Assembly (NCBI GenBank): GCA_028713935.1 | Contig: JAQTNI010000046.1 | Coordinates: 1 to 9,199 of the forward strand | Direction: 5' to 3' | DNA: 9,199 nt | DNA from: Candidatus Iainarchaeum sp. | Lineage (GTDB): Archaea; Iainarchaeota; Iainarchaeia; Iainarchaeales; GCA-2688035 | Shown: positions 1 through 9,199 of the stretch, piece by piece | Layout of the letters: each line of letters starts with the position of its first letter | Numbering within the stretch: position 1 is the stretch's first letter | The notes under the pieces: model-generated | Databases searched by the model: none | What the model saw: the letters and a program-made list of their open reading frames with translations, nothing else | Told to the model about the DNA's origin: nothing | Program-made: the position numbers and the translations under genes

Positions 1-120
1 GAAGCCGAGGACGGTTTTCCCGATGACGCGCGCAAGCTCACCGCCAAGGGCGGGAAGCAGGCGGCGAAAATGGCGGCCTGGCTGAAGGCGCGGCTACCGT
101 CCCACGCGCTGATTCTGGTC
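1..120 (+). CDS. Partial internal fragment of a histidine-phosphatase-family protein (SixA-like phosphohistidine phosphatase), in a GC-rich segment unlike the rest of the window
   Basis: Frame +1 reads EAEDGFPDDARKLTAKGGKQAAKMAAWLKARLPSHALILVS. This fits the SixA pattern D..R.LT..G..Q...MA.WL.....ILVSP. My hand count gives 81/120 GC, against 22/60 in the next 60 nt. The fragment has no start or stop codon. Confidence 0.4.
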
Positions 121-785
121 TCAAAACAATCCTTTATTATATGCGGGATTACAACCCTTGAATCAGTGTCCTCAACCCATTCAACGGGAATTTCCTTTAT
201 TTTATAGCCCGCCATTATTGCAAGAAGCAATAATTCCGTGTCAAAAAACCATTCCTTGTTTTTTGCATAAGGCAGCAAATTCTGCGCAGCACTTCTCTTT
301 ATCGCCTTGAAGCCGCACTGCGTGTCAGTAAGGCCAGTGAAAAAAAGAACCTTGAGAAGAAGCAGGAAAGCCCTTGAAATAAACCATCTTCCAAGGCTCC
401 TGTGAGTATCGGAGCCTTTCGCGTATCTCGAACCGATTGCAATGTCATTGCCCTGCTTTACCGCATTAACCAATGCGGGAAAATGCTTCAGCCTTGTTGA
501 AAGGTCAATGTCCATATAAGCGAGAATATCCGCCTTGCTCTGCATCCAGGCAGTTTTCAAAGCATAACCCCTGCCTTTCTGCTTTAACAGCAATGCATTC
601 ACTTCTTTGTGTTTTTTTGAAAGCGCTTTTGCAAGTTCAGGCGTTGAATCTTTCGAACCGTTATCCACAATAGTAATTGCAAATTCATCCCTGATATTTT
701 TTTTCAAAAAGCCAAGCAGGGTTTCAACTGAGGATTTTAACTGCTCTTCCTCATTGTAAACAGGGAGAAAAACCTCAATAAGCAT
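121..785 (-). CDS. Family 2 glycosyltransferase (dolichyl-phosphate sugar transferase-like), with its 3' end cut by the composition junction at about 120/121
   Basis: Hand translation from the ATG at 785..783 gives MLIEVFLPVYNEEEQLKSSVETLLGFLKKN...ITIVDNGSKDSTPELA...KGRGYALKTAWMQSKADILAYMDIDLS...IAIGSRY...TDTQCGFKAIKR...WFFDTELLLLA...IKEIPVEWVEDTDSRV. The GT2 hallmarks are present (VDNGS.D, DxD as DID, QCGFK, FDTEL). The ORF stays open to the left edge, so it has no stop and is absent from the ORF track. Confidence 0.85.
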
Positions 786-808
786 ACCCCAAAATTAGTG
801 AAAAGGCA

Positions 809-845: not shown

Positions 846-1814
846 TTAAGTGTTTTTTATTTTGCGCAAAAAAAAAGCGCCAAAAAAAGCCTCGATTATT
901 TCAATAAGCAGTATTGTCAATGAAAAAGAAATTGCTGTTTCTTTCGCCATTCCCATGAGCCCGAACAATCCAAGCAATGTGAAGTCCCTTGTTCCAATGC
1001 CAAAAACAGTCGGGACTATTTCAGCGAGAGTTGTTATCGGCATCATCGCGGAAACAGTCGCAAGAGAAATTTCAATGTTAAGCGAAAACGCAAGAAAATA
1101 AGCCTGGAAAAAAAACAAAATCCATGAAAAAACAGTCAGGAGCAATGCAAAAAAAACAAGTTTTTTGTTGTTTTTATAAGCCTGGATTCCCTCAAAAAAA
1201 TCGTGAAAGCCAGACCTGGCTTTTTCCTTGAACCTTCGCGGCACAAGCCTGAAAAGCGGCCTTCCAATCCGCAGCGCTGTTTCCTTTCGCGTGAGCAAAA
1301 GGAATAAAATTATAAAAAATGCCAGCACAATGCAGAGAACAAAAACTATGCTTTGCGGCAGCCCGAAAAGAAGCGAAAAATAAATAAAGCCGATTATTCC
1401 CGCAATAAGGAGAAAGCCGACATCCAGAACCCTTTCAATCAGGATGCAGCTAACGCCATTGCCTGTTTTTATGCCAAAATTTTTTTTGAAATAAACAGCG
1501 CGAAAAAAATCCCCGCTTCTTCCAGGGCTGATTGCCCCCAAAAGATATCCCGCAAGCCATATTTCAGATGACTCTTTGAGAGAAATTTTTTTTCCAAAAT
1601 TCCCCAACAGCAGCGACTGCTTCCAGCCCTTCAAAAGAATTCCGGGAATTATAAGCAGAAGCGCAAATAAAAAAACAAAAGGATTCGCACTGGAGATTAT
1701 TGAAGCAATCCCCGCAATGCCCTGAAAGCCGAGAGACCACAGGAGAAGCCCGAACAAAACCAGGCCAATCAAAAAAAGGAATTTTGAATAATGCATAAGT
1801 AATTTAAAAAGCAT
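846..1814 (-). CDS. Flippase-like / lysylphosphatidylglycerol-synthase TM-domain (UPF0104) family polytopic membrane protein
   Basis: The 322-aa ORF has about 8 hydrophobic segments. The motifs ISPGRSGDFFRAVYFKK and ILIERVLDVGFLL match the family signatures P-G-x-x-G-[DE]-x-x-R and ER-x-x-D. It lies directly upstream of a GT2 gene on the same strand, which is the usual pairing for this family. Confidence 0.72.
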   Translation of the reverse strand: MLFKLLMHYSKFLFLIGLVLFGLLLWSLGFQGIAGIASIISSANPFVFLFALLLIIPGILLKGWKQSLLLGNFGKKISLKESSEIWLAGYLLGAISPGRSGDFFRAVYFKKNFGIKTGNGVSCILIERVLDVGFLLIAGIIGFIYFSLLFGLPQSIVFVLCIVLAFFIILFLLLTRKETALRIGRPLFRLVPRRFKEKARSGFHDFFEGIQAYKNNKKLVFFALLLTVFSWILFFFQAYFLAFSLNIEISLATVSAMMPITTLAEIVPTVFGIGTRDFTLLGLFGLMGMAKETAISFSLTILLIEIIEAFFGAFFLRKIKNT

Positions 1815-1909: not shown

Positions 1910-1941
1910 TAATTGTTTCACAATTCCTATGCAGTGATTTG

Positions 1942-2478
1942 ATGGCAAAAACAGATTTCAAGAAACATATCAGGACAGTGCCGCATTTCCCTAAAAAAGG
2001 CGTAATGTTCAGGGACATCACTACTCTGCTGAAAGATGCGAATGCCCTGAAAGAAGTGGCGGATGAAATGGCCGGTTACTACTTAAAAAAACCGTATTCA
2101 ATTGACAAGGTTGTAAGCGCAGAATCGCGCGGATTCATTTTCGGCGCAATTCTCGCAAAAGAACTGCATGCGGGATTTGTGCCATTGCGCAAGCCTGGAA
2201 AACTGCCTGCAAAAACAATCCGCGAAGAATTTGACACTGAGTACAGCAAAGACGCCTTTGAAATCCACGAAGATGCAATCCAGAAAGGCGACAAGTGCAT
2301 TATCTGTGATGACCTGCTTGCAACAGGCGGCACAAGCAAGGCAGCAATCAGGCTTGTTGAAAAGCTCGGCGGGGAAGTAAAAAGCCTTTTTTTCCTGATT
2401 GAACTGGAATTTCTCAATGGAAAAGAAAAACTGAAAGGATACGATGTTTTTTCACTGGTAAAATATGACAAAGAATAA
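1942..2478 (+). CDS. apt: Adenine phosphoribosyltransferase
   Basis: The sequence has IRTVPHFPKKGVMFRDITTLLKD, then VVSAESRGFIFGAILAKELHAGFVPLRKPGKLP, then the PRPP-binding loop CIICDDLLATGGT. Together these span the full length of a typical APRT. The track start at 1939 is a TTG; the adjacent ATG at 1942 is preferred. Confidence 0.92.
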   Translation: MAKTDFKKHIRTVPHFPKKGVMFRDITTLLKDANALKEVADEMAGYYLKKPYSIDKVVSAESRGFIFGAILAKELHAGFVPLRKPGKLPAKTIREEFDTEYSKDAFEIHEDAIQKGDKCIICDDLLATGGTSKAAIRLVEKLGGEVKSLFFLIELEFLNGKEKLKGYDVFSLVKYDKE

Positions 2479-3385
2479 TTCTCCAGAAATAGTCATAGTC
2501 GGCTCAATGGCGCTTGACACTGTTGAAACCCCATTCGGAAAAGTGGAAAATGCGCTTGGAGGCAGCGCCTCTTATGCGGGCCTCGCCTCAGGCTTTTTTG
2601 CAAAAACAGGCCTTGTAAGCATAATCGGAAAAGACTTTCCTGAAAAACACCTTGATTTTTTCAAAGAACACGGCATTGGAATTGAAGGCATAGAAAAAAG
2701 CGAAAAAAACACTTTTCACTGGGAAGGAAAATACGGGTTTGACGTGAACTCTGCGCAGACAATCAAAACAGAATTAAATTCCCTGCTTGACTTTAATCCA
2801 AAATTGCCAGAGCACTATAAAAATGCCGATTTTTTGTTTCTTGGAAATTTTGACCCTGAAAAACAATTGCAGGTCCTTTTCCAGATGAAAAAAAGGCCAA
2901 GGCTTGTTGTATCCGATACAATGAACTTTTACATTTCAAGCAAGCCTGAAAAAGTCCTTGAAGTAGTGAAAGCATCTGACATTGCACTGATGAATGATGC
3001 TGAAGCAAGGCAATTGTTCAAAACGCCAAACCTTGTAAAAGCAGCAAAAAAAATTTTGGAACTGGATTCGGAATTTGCAATTATCAAGAAAGGCGAGCAC
3101 GGCTGCCTGTTGTTTTCAAAAAAAAGCTTTTTCTCGGCCCCAGGATATCCTCTTGAAAACGTTGTCGACCCCACTGGATGCGGAGACAGCTTTGCAGGCG
3201 CATTAATCGGATACCTTGCAAAAACAAAAGACTTGGGCGAAAAAAATTTCAGAAAAGCAATTATCACTGCCTCAACAATCGCCTCTTTCAATGCGGAAGA
3301 CTTTTCCCTCAACAGGCTAAGCAGGTTAAAAAAAACAGAAATTTCAAAAAGAATAAGCGAATTCAAAAAAATAACAAAATTCTGA
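2465..3385 (+). CDS. PfkB/ribokinase-family sugar or nucleoside kinase; substrate not determinable from sequence
   Basis: The N-terminus is IVIVGSMALDTVETPFG...LGGSASY. The C-terminal anion-hole/catalytic motif is DPTGCGDSFAGALIGYL, a DxTGAGD variant. The ATG overlaps the apt stop by 14 nt, which suggests translational coupling. Confidence 0.85.
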   Translation: MTKNNSPEIVIVGSMALDTVETPFGKVENALGGSASYAGLASGFFAKTGLVSIIGKDFPEKHLDFFKEHGIGIEGIEKSEKNTFHWEGKYGFDVNSAQTIKTELNSLLDFNPKLPEHYKNADFLFLGNFDPEKQLQVLFQMKKRPRLVVSDTMNFYISSKPEKVLEVVKASDIALMNDAEARQLFKTPNLVKAAKKILELDSEFAIIKKGEHGCLLFSKKSFFSAPGYPLENVVDPTGCGDSFAGALIGYLAKTKDLGEKNFRKAIITASTIASFNAEDFSLNRLSRLKKTEISKRISEFKKITKF

Positions 3386-3418
3386 AAACAGGAAAGATTA
3401 TTGCTTTCAGGTTAGAAT

Positions 3419-4162
3419 ATGGTTCGGGCTTCGAAAAGAAGGTTTGACCCAGGGCGCAGGGCTTTTTTGATAAAAGCGGCAAAAGCTGCCGGCAGCGTTT
3501 CTGTTGGGACAGCACTGTATAACGCGCCAAAATTCTGGCGCTGGATTTTAAGGAAAAGAGACACAAAAATAAATTCTCCTGTTTCAGCGCGAGGCAAAAG
3601 CGTTAAACAAATAATTGAAGAGTGGCCAGAAATTCAGAACAAGGAAATGGTTTGGATAAAAGAAAAGGGAAAACCCGGCAGTTTGCTCCCCAAAGCATAT
3701 GAGCGTGGTGAAAATTATGCTGGTTATTTTTTGAAAGGGAATGAAAGGTCAATTATTCACACTCACCCCATGGGAAGAAGCAATATTCCTTCTCCGGATG
3801 ACATATGCAGTTTCTTGAACAGGCTTGAAACTGACCTCAATAAAACACCAAAAATTGAGCACATTGCTGCGCTTAATCATGAAGGCAAAGTAATGGGTTA
3901 TTTTTCTTTGCGTGCAGGAAAAAAAATGGTTCAGGCAATTGAACAAAAAAATCCTGCATTAAAACCTTTGTTGGAAGAATTGGAAAGATTAAAGGTAAGC
4001 CCAAATTGGGAAAAAGACCCTATTGCGTTCGTGCGCGACCCAAATTATTGGAACATTTTGGAACGTTTTCAAAAAATTGGCTTGCAAATGCGCGCAACCT
4101 CCATGCCAGGTTACAAATTTGAAAATTGGCATTTTCAGGAAAAAGGAAATCCAATGGCATAA
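3419..4162 (+). CDS. Hypothetical protein with an N-terminal twin-arginine (Tat)-type signal and a RadC/JAB (MPN+)-like metalloprotease motif
   Basis: The N-terminus is MVRASKRRFDPGRRAFLIKAAKAAGSVSVGTALYNAP. It contains RRxFLxK, close to the Tat consensus [ST]RRxFLK, followed by a mildly hydrophobic h-region. Mid-protein, IIHTHPMGRSNIPSPDDI matches JAMM HxHx7SxxD with one extra spacer residue. It is followed by IEHIAAL, which resembles the RadC DHiIv element. A partial SD (AGGT) lies 7 nt upstream of the ATG. The coding call is solid; the functional call is tentative. Confidence 0.55.
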   Translation: MVRASKRRFDPGRRAFLIKAAKAAGSVSVGTALYNAPKFWRWILRKRDTKINSPVSARGKSVKQIIEEWPEIQNKEMVWIKEKGKPGSLLPKAYERGENYAGYFLKGNERSIIHTHPMGRSNIPSPDDICSFLNRLETDLNKTPKIEHIAALNHEGKVMGYFSLRAGKKMVQAIEQKNPALKPLLEELERLKVSPNWEKDPIAFVRDPNYWNILERFQKIGLQMRATSMPGYKFENWHFQEKGNPMA

Positions 4163-4239
4163 TTGCATATAATAATTCTTGCTGTACAAATTGTATAAAT
4201 ATTGCAGAATAAAAAATAACAAAAACATAGTTGATTTTC

Positions 4240-4599
4240 ATGGTAAAAAATTTTGATGCTTTCAGCAATGCGCAAAGAGAAGCAATTCTGGAAAGGGATA
4301 ACTTCCAATGTGTTTTTTGTGGTTTAGGCAAGAGAGAGGGGCTTGCGCTTCAAGTTGTTCAGGTTATTCCAAAAGACCTTGGTGGAAGAGCAGAAATATC
4401 TAATGGGCAAACCTTGTGTGCACAACACAACTTCAAAAAGAAAAATTATAAACAAACAGAAACAGGCAAAAAAATGTTTATTCGGCTCTATGAATTAGCA
4501 AAAGAAAAAGGTGACAAAGAAACCCAAGAATTTTGTGCACAAATACTGGAAGTATTCGAAAAAAATAATGTTAATGGGCATATTGTCTGGAAGAAATAG
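4240..4599 (+). CDS. Small HNH-fold (beta-beta-alpha-Me) zinc-finger protein with a substituted catalytic Asp-His; possibly inactive or divergent
   Basis: The sequence REAILERDNFQCVFCG...LQVVQVIPKDLGGRAEISNGQTLCAQHNFKKKN aligns to the HNH template RD..C..CG...LevDHiiP...GG...N...LC..C[HN]..K. The CxxC...CxxH zinc ligands and the Asn are kept, but D-H has become V-Q. The track start at 4231 is a TTG; the first ATG is at 4240. Confidence 0.65.
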   Translation: MVKNFDAFSNAQREAILERDNFQCVFCGLGKREGLALQVVQVIPKDLGGRAEISNGQTLCAQHNFKKKNYKQTETGKKMFIRLYELAKEKGDKETQEFCAQILEVFEKNNVNGHIVWKK

Positions 4600-4616
4600 A
4601 CAAAATTAAGTGAAAC

Positions 4617-4625
4617 TTTAAATTT
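4617..4625 (+). promoter_or_regulatory. Candidate TATA-like box (TTTAAATTT) for the MTA phosphorylase gene
   Basis: The box is centred about 25 nt upstream of the second ATG (4646, MIGIIGGSG) and only about 13 nt from the first ATG (4634). That spacing favours a leaderless transcript starting at 4646. Confidence 0.3.
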
Positions 4626-4633
4626 GAAAGAAG

Positions 4634-5428
4634 ATGGCATTTTTTATGATTGGAATTATAGGCGGTTCTGGCTTGGAAGACCCGCGCATTATTGCGGATT
4701 TTGAGGAAAAAGAAATTGACACCCCATTCGGAAAGCCATCAGACAAAATTGTTCTTGGCAAAATTGAAAAAATTGATGTTGCAATTGTTTCTAGGCACGG
4801 AAAAAAACATTCAATCAATCCCACAAATGTGCCTTACAAGGCAAACATCTGGGCATTGAAGCAGCTTGGCTGCACACACATATTGGCTTCAACTGCCTGC
4901 GGAAGCCTGCGTGAAAAAATAAAGCCGGGCTCAATTGTTTTTCCTGACCAGTTCATTGACTGGACAAAAAAAAGAGGCTATACCTTTTTTGATTCTGAAA
5001 AAGTAATGCATATCCCGATGGCAGACCCTTTCTGCCCTGATTTGAGAAAAATCCTTGCAAAAACAGCAAAAGAATTAAAACTGCGGTTTCATCCAAAAGG
5101 CACAATAATAACAATTGAAGGCCCAAGATTCAGCACCCGCGCAGAAAGCAAAATGTTCAGAATGCTCGGCGCAGACATAATAAACATGAGCACTGTGCCG
5201 GAAGTGATTCTTGCAAGGGAACTTGGAATGTGCTATCAAACAATTGCAATGGCAACTGATTATGACTGTTTCATGGAGAATGAAAAAACAGTGGACATTG
5301 AAACTGTCCTGAAAACAATGGCAAAAAATTCCGAGAATGTGAAAAAAATTTTGATGAAAACAATTCCCGCAATCCCGCCAAAAAGAAACTGTATATGCGA
5401 AGAACACGCAAAAAAAGCCCAGATTTAA
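4634..5428 (+). CDS. mtnP: S-methyl-5'-thioadenosine phosphorylase (MTAP / purine nucleoside phosphorylase family 2)
   Basis: The sequence includes [99 protein letters not shown] and AMATDYDC. These cover the full-length MTAP signature. The likely true start is the ATG at 4646; 4634 is the longest ORF. Confidence 0.92.
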
Positions 5429-6301
5429 TCATTGGTCCAAATCAATATTACCTGAAAGAAGCCGTATGCCATTCTCACAAATAGTATAAGGAATAAGGCC
5501 TTTTACCTGCTTTGCGCTTCTAATCTTAAGAATTTCAGCCGCATTCATTCTCTTGTTCCTGATTTTAATATTATAAAAAACAATTACAACATCAGCCAAA
5601 AATTCTTCTATCCCCTGTGAGCTGTAAACAGTCGGGTCCTGAGTTGTTTCTGAAATAACAAGGCTGACACAATTATACTTTTCAAGCAGGTCAAACAATT
5701 CCTTCACATAACGCCTGAATTTCTGCTCGCTTTCAAAAGTAACTGAAAGCGCTGAAAGCGAATCAATTACTATCCTGTCGGGCTTGAATGGCAATTCAAG
5801 CTCTGCAACTTCAATCATTAATTCGCCCGACTGCTTCTCAATCATTGCCTCAACAGTCTTGGCAACCTTTAACGGGTCAAACTTGATTATTGCAAAATTG
5901 CCCTTTTTTTCCAGAGGCGCAACATCCCAGCCATAATTGCTTTTCATGTGCTTCTTTATTCTTTCAGGGTCTTCTTCAAAAGAAACATAAATGCATTTTT
6001 CGCCCGCAAGCGCGCTTTCAAAAAGCGATTGGAAACAAAAAGTTGTTTTTCCAGTTCCCGCTCCCCCCGCAATAAGGACAACACTGCCCCTTTCAAAGCC
6101 ATGGCTTGAAACAAGCTTGTCAAAAGAATCAACCCTTATAGGCAGAACCTCAAATTGTTTTTCCTCTGTTTTTTCATTCGGCTTTATGACATTGTGCCTC
6201 TCGCCTATTTCCGGGCTTTCATGCACAATGCCTTCTTCAGGCTCGCCAGTTTTCTGGGATTTTTTGCCAGTACCCTTAAAAACTTCTTTCAGCAAGCCCA
6301 T
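5429..6301 (-). CDS. Single-domain KaiC/RecA-superfamily ATPase (COG0467-like) with a charged N-terminal extension of about 55 aa
   Basis: The core is FDKLVSSHGFERGSVVLIAGGAGTGKTTFCFQSLFESALAGEKCIYVSFEEDPERI. It has Walker A GGAGTGKT and Walker B-like RIVIDSLSAL. The C-terminus EILKIRSAKQVKGLIPYTICENGIRL is typical of KaiC-like proteins. Its stop codon (5429..5431) abuts the MTAP stop (5426..5428). Confidence 0.85.
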   Translation of the reverse strand: MGLLKEVFKGTGKKSQKTGEPEEGIVHESPEIGERHNVIKPNEKTEEKQFEVLPIRVDSFDKLVSSHGFERGSVVLIAGGAGTGKTTFCFQSLFESALAGEKCIYVSFEEDPERIKKHMKSNYGWDVAPLEKKGNFAIIKFDPLKVAKTVEAMIEKQSGELMIEVAELELPFKPDRIVIDSLSALSVTFESEQKFRRYVKELFDLLEKYNCVSLVISETTQDPTVYSSQGIEEFLADVVIVFYNIKIRNKRMNAAEILKIRSAKQVKGLIPYTICENGIRLLSGNIDLDQ

Positions 6302-6332: not shown

Positions 6333-7538
6333 TTAAGACTTTTTCCTATTTAATTGTTTCCCGGCTTCGGAAATCTCAAGCTTGAATTCACTGAGCCTTT
6401 TCCTGTAATATTCCTCTGAAATAGACCTTTCCTTGAAATACTTTGCCTGCAAATTCTCAATTTCCCTGTTCAAAAAAGCAATTTTTTTCTCCAGGCCTTT
6501 TTTTGAAGAACGCCTTTTTTCAAAAAAAACAGCCAAAAAAACAGCAGCCAAAATCACAATTATAATTGCGCCAAAAGCAAGCTGATTCCCAAAGCCAAGC
6601 CAAAAGCCCTTTTCAACAAAAAAAGTCTCTTCCCTTGAAGCGGAATTGCCAAAAGCATCTGTAACAGCCAGCACAACAGTGTGAGGCCCAATGCTTTCCC
6701 CGCCAAAAAGCTTCTGATAAGAAAACCTTTTTTCAGAAACCTGCTGCAAAAACCCCTTATTGCCACAGCATTCAATGGAAACAACAGGCTCCTTCAGCGG
6801 AGTTCCATCAGCATAAGTAATTTCAACCAGAATATTCTGCAGCACCCCTGCTTCAATCCTGCCTATCACCACAGGCTCAATAACGGAAATAATCATTTTT
6901 GCTTTTTCAATTCCAAAAGCCTTTACAAATTGCCCCCTTATTTTTTGAACAGGGTTTACTGCAACCATGACCAGGTTCCAGCTTGATTCATTAAAATCCA
7001 CTGGAACCAAAAAATTGCCCTTAAACAAGCCATTGCCAACAGGAGTCAAAACAGACTTTGAACCATCGGGCACCCAATAAAAAACATTCGCATCATTGAA
7101 AGAAGCATTGTTAAAAATCACCTGCACAGTAAAATCAACGGAATCATTGCGGCTCAATTTTTCAACTGCAGGGGTGAGAAGCACCAGGGAAAGCAAAACA
7201 GTTTCCTGCTTCGGATAAATAAATGTGTCAACAGAATTTTTGTCCCGAGAATCGGAAAAATCAAATTCCCATTTTCCGGTCGGATAATCAAGGCCTGTCT
7301 GGAATTCAACGGAATAAAAAAAATTCAGGCATTTTGCAGACTTCAAAAAAAGAGTTTCATTGTAAATGGAAACCCGCGCCTCAACAGAACTGCCTGTGCA
7401 GCTTCCCGAAAAAACAATTTTGTCCCCCAAAAAAAAATCTTTTTGCCCGGCATCCATTGAAAGCGCAGCCGCATTCGCCGCAAAAAAACAAAAAACAGCA
7501 AAAAAAACAAAAAATCCAAAACCAATCCTTATAGACAT
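6333..7538 (-). CDS. Type-I membrane surface protein: signal peptide, about 3 Ig/MG-like beta-rich modules, one C-terminal TM helix and a cytoplasmic SHOCT-like coiled-coil tail; paralog of the upstream gene
   Basis: From the ATG at 7538 the protein begins MSIRIGFGFFVFFAVFCFFAANAAA, a signal-like sequence. The TM helix is LAFGAIIIVILAAVFLAVFF (about 6522..6605). The tail is EKRRSSKKGLEKKIAFLNREIENLQAKYFKERSISEEYYRKRL.... The track start at 7571 adds MKSLKRQKGGK and would overlap the upstream gene by 32 nt. The 7538 start leaves a 1-nt gap and has AGGCGGT 4 nt upstream. Confidence 0.7.
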   Translation of the reverse strand: MSIRIGFGFFVFFAVFCFFAANAAALSMDAGQKDFFLGDKIVFSGSCTGSSVEARVSIYNETLFLKSAKCLNFFYSVEFQTGLDYPTGKWEFDFSDSRDKNSVDTFIYPKQETVLLSLVLLTPAVEKLSRNDSVDFTVQVIFNNASFNDANVFYWVPDGSKSVLTPVGNGLFKGNFLVPVDFNESSWNLVMVAVNPVQKIRGQFVKAFGIEKAKMIISVIEPVVIGRIEAGVLQNILVEITYADGTPLKEPVVSIECCGNKGFLQQVSEKRFSYQKLFGGESIGPHTVVLAVTDAFGNSASREETFFVEKGFWLGFGNQLAFGAIIIVILAAVFLAVFFEKRRSSKKGLEKKIAFLNREIENLQAKYFKERSISEEYYRKRLSEFKLEISEAGKQLNRKKS

Positions 7539-7539
7539 T

Positions 7540-9199
7540 TTACCGCCTTTTTGCCTTTTCAAGCTTTTCACTTAGCTTCTGCATTTCAGATTCATACTGC
7601 GCCCTGCTCATCAGGCCTTTCTGGAAATAATTTTCCTGCAACTCCCTTATTCTTGCCTCTGCCAAAGAAATGTTTTTTTTCTTTGAAGTTGCAAACGACC
7701 TTGCAAGTGCGCCCCTGAAAACAAAGAAAAATAATGCGGCCGCAATTGCAAGCACCGCAATCAGCTGCAATGCATTCCTGGCAAGCACATAGGAAAAGCT
7801 TTCCCCTATAACACTCACTTTTTTTTCAACGGAAACAACATTTCCATAAGAATCAGCAACCTTGATTGAAACAAAAGGGCTCCCAACATCTTCCTCGGAA
7901 AAAGCATAGCTCCCAACAAAGCGCCCCGGCTCTGCCTGGCGCAATGGAATTTCCTTTGCATTCACCAAAACAAATGCCTTTGCATCAACAACCTTTGATT
8001 TGTCAGGATAATAAGCCAGGATTTCAAATTCAATAATGTCGCCAATCTGAAAAAAATCATCTTTAGGCAAAATTGTTTCAATTATGGGAGTGGTTTTTTC
8101 AACAACAATTTTGCCAGTTGCAGTTGCCTCTGCAACAATCAATGAACCGTCTTTTTTTGCAGCGGAAACAGAAAAAGAATTTTCGCCTTCCTTTGCAGAA
8201 AACGGAATTACAAGCGAAACAGAATACTTGCCAGGCTCAAATTCAAAAAACCTGGTTTTTTGCCCAAACACCTCTACAAAAGCCTCTGCCTTTTCCACAC
8301 CATTGCCGGATTCATCGGAAATCGCAATAACAAGCGGAACCTCTTCGCCTCTCCCAAAAGACTCTTTTTGAAGCGGCTCTATTGCAATTGAAAGCTTTTT
8401 TGCAAAAACCTTTTCCTTAACTTCAAAAGCCCTCTGGAAAAAAGCCTTGTTTCCATTGCCATCAATTCCCGTAATCAAAAGGGAATATTCCCCAAGCTTG
8501 CCAAGCAATGAAACAGGATAAGAAAAAGAAAAAGCCCCTGTATTTACATCAGAAGCAAAAACACTGTTGAAAACACTTTTTCCCTGGAAAAAAATATTTG
8601 CATCAAGCATTATGCCAACAGGCTTCGCCTTTGCCCTTACAAAGCCCTGCAAATCCAAAACATCACCCAAAGCAACGCTTTGAGGAATATCAAGAACAAC
8701 ATTCAGGTCAGGTTTCACCAAAAAATTTGCCTTTGCTGTTCCAGTAACCCCCCTGAAAACAGCAGTGAATTCAACAGGATTAGGGCCAAGCATTGAAGGC
8801 AAAACATTTACAAAATTGCCATAAATTGCATCAAAAGAACTGCTGTCCCCATGCCTGCTGTCATTGTAAAGCACATAATTCTTTGAGCCAATCCTGAAGC
8901 TCGCTTCCGCGCCAATCACTTTTGATTTCCCATCAGCAAGAATCTCAACAACAACATTTGCCTTTTCCCCAAAAACAAAATAATCATTTACAGAAGGCAC
9001 AATAACAGAAATATCAATGCTCTTCGGAGTGCAATCTGCAGGGCAGCCCTCATAAGTTTCGCTTGATTCACAGGTTGCATTGCCGCAGCAATTTGTCTTT
9101 AAAATAATTTTGCAGACACCGCTGACACAGCCAAGCTCTTTGCAGGCATCATTCCCGTACTGGCCGGAACAATTGCCACAATCGCCTGGGCAACTGCAC
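7540..9199 (-). CDS. Partial (5' end outside the window) large surface protein: Cys-rich head, four tandem Ig/MG-like modules of about 95 aa, a C-terminal TM helix and a SHOCT-like cytoplasmic tail
   Basis: The track start at 9000 is a GTG. The frame stays open upstream to 9199 and reads CSCPGDCGNCSGQYGNDACKELGCVSGVCKIILKTNCCGNATCESSETYEGCPADCTPKSIDISVIV. The modules recur with the pattern G[DE].h.h.h.....A.hFh......G.Y.h.h.h......G....h...D..GN. The TM helix is LQLIAVLAIAAALFFFVF (about 7717..7788). The tail is KKKNISLAEARIRELQENYFQKGLMSRAQYESEMQKL. Confidence 0.72.
   Translation of the reverse strand, partial: CSCPGDCGNCSGQYGNDACKELGCVSGVCKIILKTNCCGNATCESSETYEGCPADCTPKSIDISVIVPSVNDYFVFGEKANVVVEILADGKSKVIGAEASFRIGSKNYVLYNDSRHGDSSSFDAIYGNFVNVLPSMLGPNPVEFTAVFRGVTGTAKANFLVKPDLNVVLDIPQSVALGDVLDLQGFVRAKAKPVGIMLDANIFFQGKSVFNSVFASDVNTGAFSFSYPVSLLGKLGEYSLLITGIDGNGNKAFFQRAFEVKEKVFAKKLSIAIEPLQKESFGRGEEVPLVIAISDESGNGVEKAEAFVEVFGQKTRFFEFEPGKYSVSLVIPFSAKEGENSFSVSAAKKDGSLIVAEATATGKIVVEKTTPIIETILPKDDFFQIGDIIEFEILAYYPDKSKVVDAKAFVLVNAKEIPLRQAEPGRFVGSYAFSEEDVGSPFVSIKVADSYGNVVSVEKKVSVIGESFSYVLARNALQLIAVLAIAAALFFFVFRGALARSFATSKKKNISLAEARIRELQENYFQKGLMSRAQYESEMQKLSEKLEKAKRR

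Follow-up and report, generated by a model that had tools for sequence, protein, structure and literature searches.

A JAB/MPN+ protein with a twin-arginine-type signal and its undescribed archaeal relatives

Within a 9,199-nucleotide stretch of archaeal DNA (contig JAQTNI010000046.1 of assembly GCA_028713935.1, Candidatus Iainarchaeum sp.; hereafter the window), a complete open reading frame (ORF) encodes P0001, a protein in which a predicted hydrolase domain of the JAB/MPN+ (JAMM) superfamily follows an N-terminal signal of the twin-arginine translocation (Tat) type (Table 1). The gene is embedded in a tight co-directional purine-salvage run on the forward strand (positions 1939-5428) that comprises APRT, a PfkB kinase, the JAB gene, an HNH nuclease and MTAP, and its guanine-plus-cytosine (GC) content of ~0.39 is the same as that of the neighbouring genes. 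A preliminary description of this DNA, made from the letters alone, had quoted three peptides from the protein, all of which are found in P0001: GRRAFLIKAAKAAGSVSVGTAL at residues 12-33, IIHTHPMGRSNIPSPDDI at residues 112-129 and IEHIAAL at residues 146-152. The N-terminus is fixed by an in-frame TAG at positions 3413-3415, one codon 5' of the ATG, while Met77, which is the following Met, already lies within the conserved core, so that any full-length P0001 includes the twin-arginine (RR) region. The RR signal is thus not an artefact of start codon assignment, a concern raised at the outset, and the signal-bearing orthologs likewise do not begin 3' of this region.

P0001 belongs to a small undescribed archaeal clade of the JAB/MPN+ superfamily that lies outside every named family tested. 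The protein has no JAB match in Pfam, NCBIfam, PHROGs or PADLOC, and its family was exposed only by exhaustive HMMER searching, since a k-mer homology search with P0001 returned P0001 itself and a second k-mer search with a 43-sequence profile returned only six close relatives, all of one clade. Exhaustive phmmer comparison with 1.84 billion cluster representatives gave 103 proteins at E <= 0.001, including 34 at E <= 1e-10, and at a clustering identity of 50% the family amounts to ~100 clusters. Of the 103, P0031, P0037 and P0095 were dropped as Listeria-Bacteroides-type repeat proteins that match solely via 'PGYxFxGW'. All conservation counts given below refer to a 102-sequence family alignment, termed A4. 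The relatives are proteins of 125-385 residues, and those that were looked up are nameless in every source. As far as sampled, the family is archaeal, because two relatives lie in archaeal metagenome-assembled genomes (MAGs) at NCBI and others are flanked by archaeal-type genes, among them MCM, LSM, aIF5A, class-I LysRS and fragments of family-B polymerase. An alignment-based scan of GTDB covered one narrow clade and yielded two MAG loci, and a degenerate DNA pattern run against metagenomes of the Joint Genome Institute yielded two further loci.

The body of P0001 carries the sequence HTHPx8SPDD, in which the spacer between HxH and Ser is, as noted in the preliminary description, one residue over the canonical length. 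By itself the HxH...SxxD motif is weak evidence, because the regular expression H.H.{6,9}S..D, which has a single occurrence across the six reading frames of the window, also turns up one or more times in 16.7% of 300 mononucleotide-shuffled versions of the same DNA. The observation is instead confirmed as real by the conservation of the family, by the fold and by the signal. The near-invariant columns of A4 are E67, E76, H114, H116, S125, D128 and G160, and since mean pairwise identity across the core is only 25-28%, this conservation of the catalytic residues argues for selection on the catalytic site. The spacer varies from 6 to 31 residues in the family (median 15) and so departs from the canonical H-x-H-x(7)-S-x-x-D; the difference is a variable loop insertion that entails no loss of residues.

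The predicted structure leads to the same superfamily. AlphaFold applied to the single sequence was useless (predicted local distance difference test, pLDDT, of 39), and an AlphaFold2 model based on A4 was used instead; this model has a pLDDT of 86.7 and a predicted template modelling score of 0.76, with most of residues 61-240 at a pLDDT of 93-98. Foldseek matches of the model among solved structures in the PDB are mainly JAMM/MPN domains (Sst2/AMSH, Citrobacter BubCD, Prp8 Jab1/MPN, CSN5, BRCC36 and Pyrococcus PfJAMM1), the best being Sst2/AMSH (E 9.4e-4, probability 0.99), while PfJAMM1 superposes with a root-mean-square deviation of 3.8 A over 124 columns and a template modelling score of 0.52 normalised to the target. 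The MPN/JAB fold that had been suspected for P0001 is thus the one predicted. Comparison with predicted viral structures (BFVD) gave somewhat better E-values than the PDB, down to 2.7e-5, with matches that include proteins labelled 'MPN family protein', 'Deubiquitination hydrolase' and 'Metalloprotease' as well as iridovirus, mimivirus and pithovirus proteins and p25 of the Xanthomonas phage Xop411. In the standard JAMM layout (AfJAMM, AMSH/AMSH-LP and Rpn11), a Glu lies ahead of the strand that follows helix 1, the HxH ends a strand and the SxxD starts a helix, and by the secondary structure of the model the conserved residues of P0001 occupy these known positions. The catalytic core is followed by a family-specific C-terminal module for which no counterpart was identified; two residues of the motif near its end, G221 and F239, are conserved in at least 90% of sequences.

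These features place P0001 beside the JAMM/MPN+ isopeptidases (AMSH/Sst2, Rpn11, CSN5, BRCC36 and PfJAMM1/HvJAMM1), with which it shares the MPN fold detected by Foldseek and the conserved E...H-x-H...S-x-x-D, and its H-T-H-P signature resembles that of AMSH. It differs from them in a spacer of 8 rather than 7, in the conserved 80-residue C-terminal module of its family, in its N-terminal Tat signal, in having no gene for a ubiquitin-like protein (UBL), E1 or E2 nearby, and in giving no match to a hidden Markov model (HMM) above threshold. Among named prokaryotic families, RadC (PF04002) and Prok-JAB (PF14464) share the HxHP...PSxxD layout. The likeness to RadC drawn in the preliminary description does not extend to identity: PF04002 gives no match at E <= 1, and a signal peptide stands at the N-terminus in place of a helix-hairpin-helix domain. 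Prok-JAB matches were confined to 3 of the 102 relatives (best E 0.0036), each with a short, near-canonical spacer and each match coinciding with the HxH-SxxD segment of the profile; as the scores of 13-17.6 bits fall short of the cutoff of 25, membership of that family was rejected. A PADLOC match to CARF_HEPN (E 7.8e-4), which at residues 8-78 is confined to the signal and linker, was judged spurious. No meaning was attached to the outcome of PDB sequence searches, in which P0001 alone gave a non-significant match to PeiW (E 0.48) and the A4 profile matched only the coiled coil of a proteasome, by chance.

Ahead of the core, P0001 presents the parts of a Tat signal in their usual order. The twin-arginine consensus followed by a weakly hydrophobic stretch, as first read from the sequence, is upheld both by GRRAFLIK in P0001 and by S/T-R-R-x-F-L-K in the family logo. 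In 43 sequences the positions of this logo are occupied by S/T at -1 (36), RR (43), F at +3 (25), L at +4 (34) and K at +5 (19), which is the textbook Tat consensus, and R13 and R14 are invariant in an alignment of 11 signal-bearing relatives. Sorted by N-terminus, the members of A4 fall into three classes: 44/102 have an RR motif followed by a hydrophobic stretch, 6/102 have a hydrophobic stretch without RR and look like truncated gene calls, and 52/102 have no hydrophobic N-terminus and only a basic tail of 10-30 residues. Within the first class, 21 of the 44 bear a lipobox-like [GAS]C motif, and in 20 of these the distance from the first Arg to the Cys is 16-24 residues. The signal-less class is genuine, because the ORF of one of its members, P0016, begins just five codons past an in-frame stop. 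The expectation that orthologs would keep both the RR and the HxH motif therefore stands for the long subfamily, which retains RR together with E...HxH...S..D, and does not extend to the 52 signal-less members; from the distribution of N-termini, export appears to be a subfamily trait that is not tied to the JAB fold. A third architecture within the family is seen in P0029 and P0065 (~380 residues), in which the signal peptide is replaced by ~200 additional N-terminal residues that are very basic and contain no recognisable domain.

Taken as a whole, P0001 is probably a zinc-dependent JAMM hydrolase that leaves the cytoplasm through Tat and is retained at the outer membrane face. Several observations weigh against this combination. 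Neither P0001 nor any relative reaches the gathering score of PF01398, PF14464 or PF04002. The h-region of P0001, interrupted by a Lys, ranks with the least hydrophobic of its family; the only Pfam match of the protein is a sub-cutoff one to the Rieske Tat-signal model PF10399 (residues 10-33, E 0.009), and the Tat-signal model TIGR01409 does not match P0001. Signal-less members include relatives that cluster near P0001, and from their N-termini the catalytic domain evidently has a cytoplasmic role as well. No TatA or TatC gene was found by Pfam listings or a TatA motif scan in the ~100 kb of DNA surveyed, which from the source organism comprised only the 9.2-kb contig, and all-against-all BLAST of eight loci revealed no conserved neighbours of the JAB gene that might hint at a substrate, beyond the synteny of closely related genomes. 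Lastly, non-halophilic archaea are predicted to send most of their lipoproteins via Sec (PMC12462473).

Some of these points could also be accommodated if P0001 remained in the cytoplasm and did the same job as its signal-less relatives, its N-terminus being a remnant without function or a peripheral tether to the membrane. Half of the family lacks a signal and has a short basic N-terminal tail, and the h-region of P0001 itself is weak: its Kyte-Doolittle maximum is 1.25 over a 15-residue window, with one Lys among its residues; the archaeal lipobox [LVI][ASTVI][GAS]C is not present, there being no Cys before residue 130; there is no clear AxA cleavage site, G-T-A followed by Leu being a possible cut; and similar net charges, +5 and +4, flank the h-region. 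A cytoplasmic P0001 is nonetheless decidedly unlikely. The RR motif and h-region are kept across 44 divergent relatives, which argues for selection on the signal, the lipobox Cys that 21 of them carry at a constant spacing makes sense only outside the membrane, and the nearest relatives by E-value (P0002, P0003, P0005 and P0011) are all signal-bearing.

The route of export is a separate matter. The domain could lie outside the cell and have reached it through a Sec/YidC signal or signal anchor, the RR pair being just part of an N-terminus rich in Arg and Lys. The n-regions of the family are long and very basic, with a mean net charge of +6.8 from which RR pairs would arise easily, and both the predicted preference of non-halophilic archaeal lipoproteins for Sec and the absence of Tat genes from the DNA surveyed fit such a route. 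The RR pair is, however, not generic basicity, because the residues that flank it match the consensus recognised by TatC, and the TAT_signal HMMs match 13-14 members of the family (13 for PF10518 and 14 for TIGR01409, at E <= 0.1). The h-regions are moreover weakly hydrophobic, with a median uncharged run of 14 residues, and the c-regions are basic; in P0001 the 12 residues after the h-region have a net charge of +4, and those of its relatives are likewise net positive. Weak hydrophobicity of the h-region and a basic c-region are Sec-avoidance features of Tat signals, and the c-region and linker of P0001 may act as such a segment or as an interface. A Sec or YidC route is accordingly held to be quite unlikely. 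The same ~100 kb yielded no other Tat substrates.

Table 1. Coordinates of the genes in the window and of the features within P0001 (residue numbers are those of P0001; conservation is counted in A4).
Feature	Position (nt)	Strand	Details
GT2 glycosyltransferase	1-790	-	runs off the window start
LPG_synthase_TM (flippase-like) membrane protein	846-1814	-	adjoins GT2
APRT	1939-2478	+	
PfkB-type kinase	2465-3385	+	best NCBIfam match a Thermoplasmatales nucleoside kinase, far sub-cutoff
P0001, Tat-signal-bearing JAB/MPN+ protein, complete ORF	3419-4162	+	247 aa plus stop; ATG start
Basic n-region, residues 1-14	3419-3460	+	net +5, ending in R13 R14; mean net +6.8 in relatives
Tat consensus G-R-R-A-F-L-I-K, residues 12-19	3452-3475	+	aligns with S/T-R-R-x-F-L-K of relatives
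Weakly hydrophobic h-region, residues 20-36, AAKAAGSVSVGTALYNAP	3476-3526	+	15-residue uncharged run; no lipobox Cys
Basic aromatic c-region and linker, residues 37-60, KFWRWILRKRDTK...	3527-3598	+	low-confidence helix in the model
Predicted JAB/MPN+ catalytic core, residues 61-167	3599-3919	+	pLDDT 93-98; Foldseek matches to JAMM/MPN domains
E67, also conserved	3617-3619	+	93/102
E76, candidate catalytic glutamate	3644-3646	+	100/102; after helix 62-68 and just ahead of strand 78-82 in the model
H114-T115-H116, two candidate His metal ligands	3758-3766	+	H 101/102, T/S 99/102, H 100/102; end of strand 109-116 in the model
S125-P-D-D128, Ser and candidate Asp metal ligand	3791-3802	+	S 96/102, D 101/102; start of helix 126-138 in the model
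H148 of IEHIAAL, additional conserved His	3860-3862	+	88/102; strand 146-152
Family-specific C-terminal module, residues 168-247	3920-4159	+	five short helices then three strands in the model
Conserved motif G-L-x-h-R-x-T-P-M-P-G-Y-x-F-x-x-G-x-F-x-x-K, residues 221-242	4079-4144	+	strands 222-228, 232-235 and 238-241
HNH nuclease, stand-alone	4231-4599	+	122 aa; between the JAB gene and MTAP
MTAP	4634-5428	+	
KaiC-like ATPase, single-domain	5429-6301	-	two genes from the JAB gene
Surface protein 1	6333-7571	-	Sec-type signal; no Pfam match
Surface protein 2	7540-9000	-	no Pfam match

The window as a whole (~40% GC, with Lys-rich proteins) is not recognisably haloarchaeal; its first 500 nt, within the GT2 gene, are richer in GC (0.49) than the remainder. 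Among NCBIfam models, the HNH protein that follows the JAB gene is closest to the RNA-guided nuclease IscB, in the HNH region of the latter (E 8e-9; 35 bits, the cutoff being 175). It also matches phage HNH families and models of type II restriction enzymes, and its gene is possibly a mobile or selfish insertion. Beyond MTAP, on the opposite strand, stands a gene for a KaiC-like ATPase, and at another locus of the family, L026, such a gene (868-1608, -) is directly convergent to the JAB gene. KaiC-like ATPases have many archaeal paralogs, so their proximity at these two loci may be coincidence. The two surface proteins at the far end of the window overlap and look paralogous, each combining a large ectodomain with a single transmembrane helix at the C-terminal end and a coiled-coil tail of basic character. 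The frame of the second is open past the GTG listed as its start and enters a Cys-rich stretch that leaves the window end.

Envelope-related genes adjoin the JAB gene in a few places. In the lipobox-bearing clade represented by two closely related MAGs (locus L002, 8631-9173 and 10767-11567; locus L004, 2093-2635 and 4564-5280), an exosortase/archaeosortase-like gene (PF09721) and a GT2 gene lie 2-3 genes upstream of the JAB gene, which is convergent with a Peptidase_C39-like gene; an envelope-processing neighbourhood of this kind was seen in these two MAGs alone. On the contig of P0011 (L013), a gene of the signal-peptide-peptidase family (PF06550; 1076-1912, -) is divergent from the JAB gene and adjoins it, a single occurrence. 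Small ORFs beside the JAB genes look uninformative. No toxin-delivery or immunity gene was found near the JAB gene, the neighbours being housekeeping genes that are not conserved, and no gene for a UBL, E1 or E2 occurs in the window or in seven related loci. Among published findings that favour the proposed export, the DPANN archaeon Mia14 has Tat genes (PMC5498576), and lipoproteins are prevalent in DPANN (PMC12462473).

The purine genes of the run, together with the lack of UBL, E1 and E2 neighbours, bear on the chemistry of the enzyme rather than on its location. An exported P0001 could resemble the divergent RadC and Tox-JAB clades, which have been proposed to be nucleases, and supply purine salvage by cleaving nucleic acids or a nucleotide-like substrate in the cell's surroundings. 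At the locus of P0002 (L007) the JAB gene again lies among purine genes, in this instance the biosynthetic purD, purF and purS. The JAB fold has been placed within the deaminase-like fold, which is linked to nucleotide substrates (PMC3239186), and divergent secreted JAB clades have been suggested to be nucleases rather than UBL peptidases (Zhang et al., PMC3482391). Nuclease activity of JAB domains is itself a prediction and not an established fact, however, and purine genes adjoin the JAB gene in only 2 of ~9 contexts. The isopeptidase Sst2/AMSH is the best match among solved structures, and the HTHP...S..D of P0001 is akin to the AMSH motif. A nucleolytic role, to which only the purine genes beside P0001 and P0002 point, is for these reasons regarded as unlikely.

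Nearly all that is known of JAB/MPN+ enzymes concerns isopeptidases that serve ubiquitin-like systems in the cytoplasm or nucleus, and the partner genes of the UBL-linked JAMM systems (SAMP/JAMM1, CBASS Cap3 and the Bub operons) are lacking at P0001 and at the seven related loci. Exported versions do have precedent in the Tox-JAB-1/2 toxin domains and in secreted phage and giant-virus forms, described in 2012 (PMC3482391). Tox-JAB-2, or DUF4329 (PF14220), is like P0001 in its signature residues E, H[ST]H, S and D (PMC3482391) and in the site of action proposed for P0001, outside the cytoplasm of the producer, and p25 of phage Xop411, one of the BFVD matches of P0001, itself matches DUF4329. 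The P0001 family is distinct from Tox-JAB-2 in consisting of stand-alone proteins of 190-310 aa with neither an RHS or other toxin-delivery N-terminus nor an immunity gene, in its Tat/lipoprotein-type signal and in being archaeal. Membership of Tox-JAB-2 was rejected, as hhalign of A4 against an alignment of eight phage DUF4329 proteins (A6) gave a probability of 10.8% over 12 columns; DUF4329 is not found among the Pfam results listed for family members, and hhalign of Xop411 p25 against the family gave no support for membership either. The tail-tip protein K of phage lambda, in which a JAB domain is joined to NlpC/P60, also works outside the cytoplasm; a relation to it was likewise dismissed (hhalign probability 0.5%), P0001 having no NlpC/P60 domain and no phage context. 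A phage or virus origin was rejected in view of a tblastn search of 50,697 phage records that gave no match and two pattern scans of IMG/VR that gave no relative.

With regard to the signal, the closest comparisons are the haloarchaeal-type Tat lipoproteins, which share the sequence S/T-R-R-x-F-L-K and the h-region after it as well as, in many relatives of P0001, the lipobox Cys, and the Tat signal-anchored Rieske proteins, whose signal model the N-terminus of P0001 weakly matches. The family differs from both in that the passenger is a JAB hydrolase and the organisms are not recognisably haloarchaea; P0001 itself lacks the lipobox Cys. No literature report was found of a chromosomal archaeal JAB family targeted by Tat and lipobox signals.

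Export by Tat would proceed as follows. P0001 would fold in the cytoplasm and take up its metal there through the ligands H114, H116 and D128, with E76 as a general base and S125 stabilising the reaction intermediate. TatC would recognise the basic n-region, the G-R-R-A-F-L-I-K sequence, the weakly hydrophobic h-region and the basic c-region, and the folded enzyme would then cross the cytoplasmic membrane. In the 21 of 44 signal-bearing relatives that have it, the lipobox-like Cys would anchor the mature enzyme by a lipid to the outer leaflet; in P0001, which has no such Cys, the signal may be kept as an N-terminal anchor in the manner of Rieske proteins or be cut near the G-T-A and Leu junction. 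Outside the cell, the enzyme would hydrolyse a peptide or isopeptide bond in the envelope or in an extracellular substrate. The preliminary description had put forward an unusual extracytoplasmic, Tat-exported JAB enzyme, and that proposal is supported, the fold, the presence of both motifs in signal-bearing orthologs and the start site being in agreement with it.

The family adds ~100 sequence clusters to a part of protein space that lacks annotation, being covered by no JAB family of Pfam, NCBIfam, PHROGs or PADLOC. That a conserved JAB domain is preceded by a canonical Tat signal, in many members together with a lipobox, implies JAMM activity at the membrane surface of archaea, and the family would offer a clean example of the rationale for Tat, in which a metal site is loaded ahead of export. 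Its signal-less and exported members provide a natural contrast for experiments. In the most far-reaching interpretation, which is tentative and on present evidence doubtful, this would be the first cellular JAMM family dedicated to extracytoplasmic work, a Tat-exported surface zinc isopeptidase, lipid-anchored in many members, by which archaea of small genome cut an envelope polymer or a surface-protein conjugate of their own or of a host. If true, the family would represent an extracellular counterpart of deubiquitinase chemistry.

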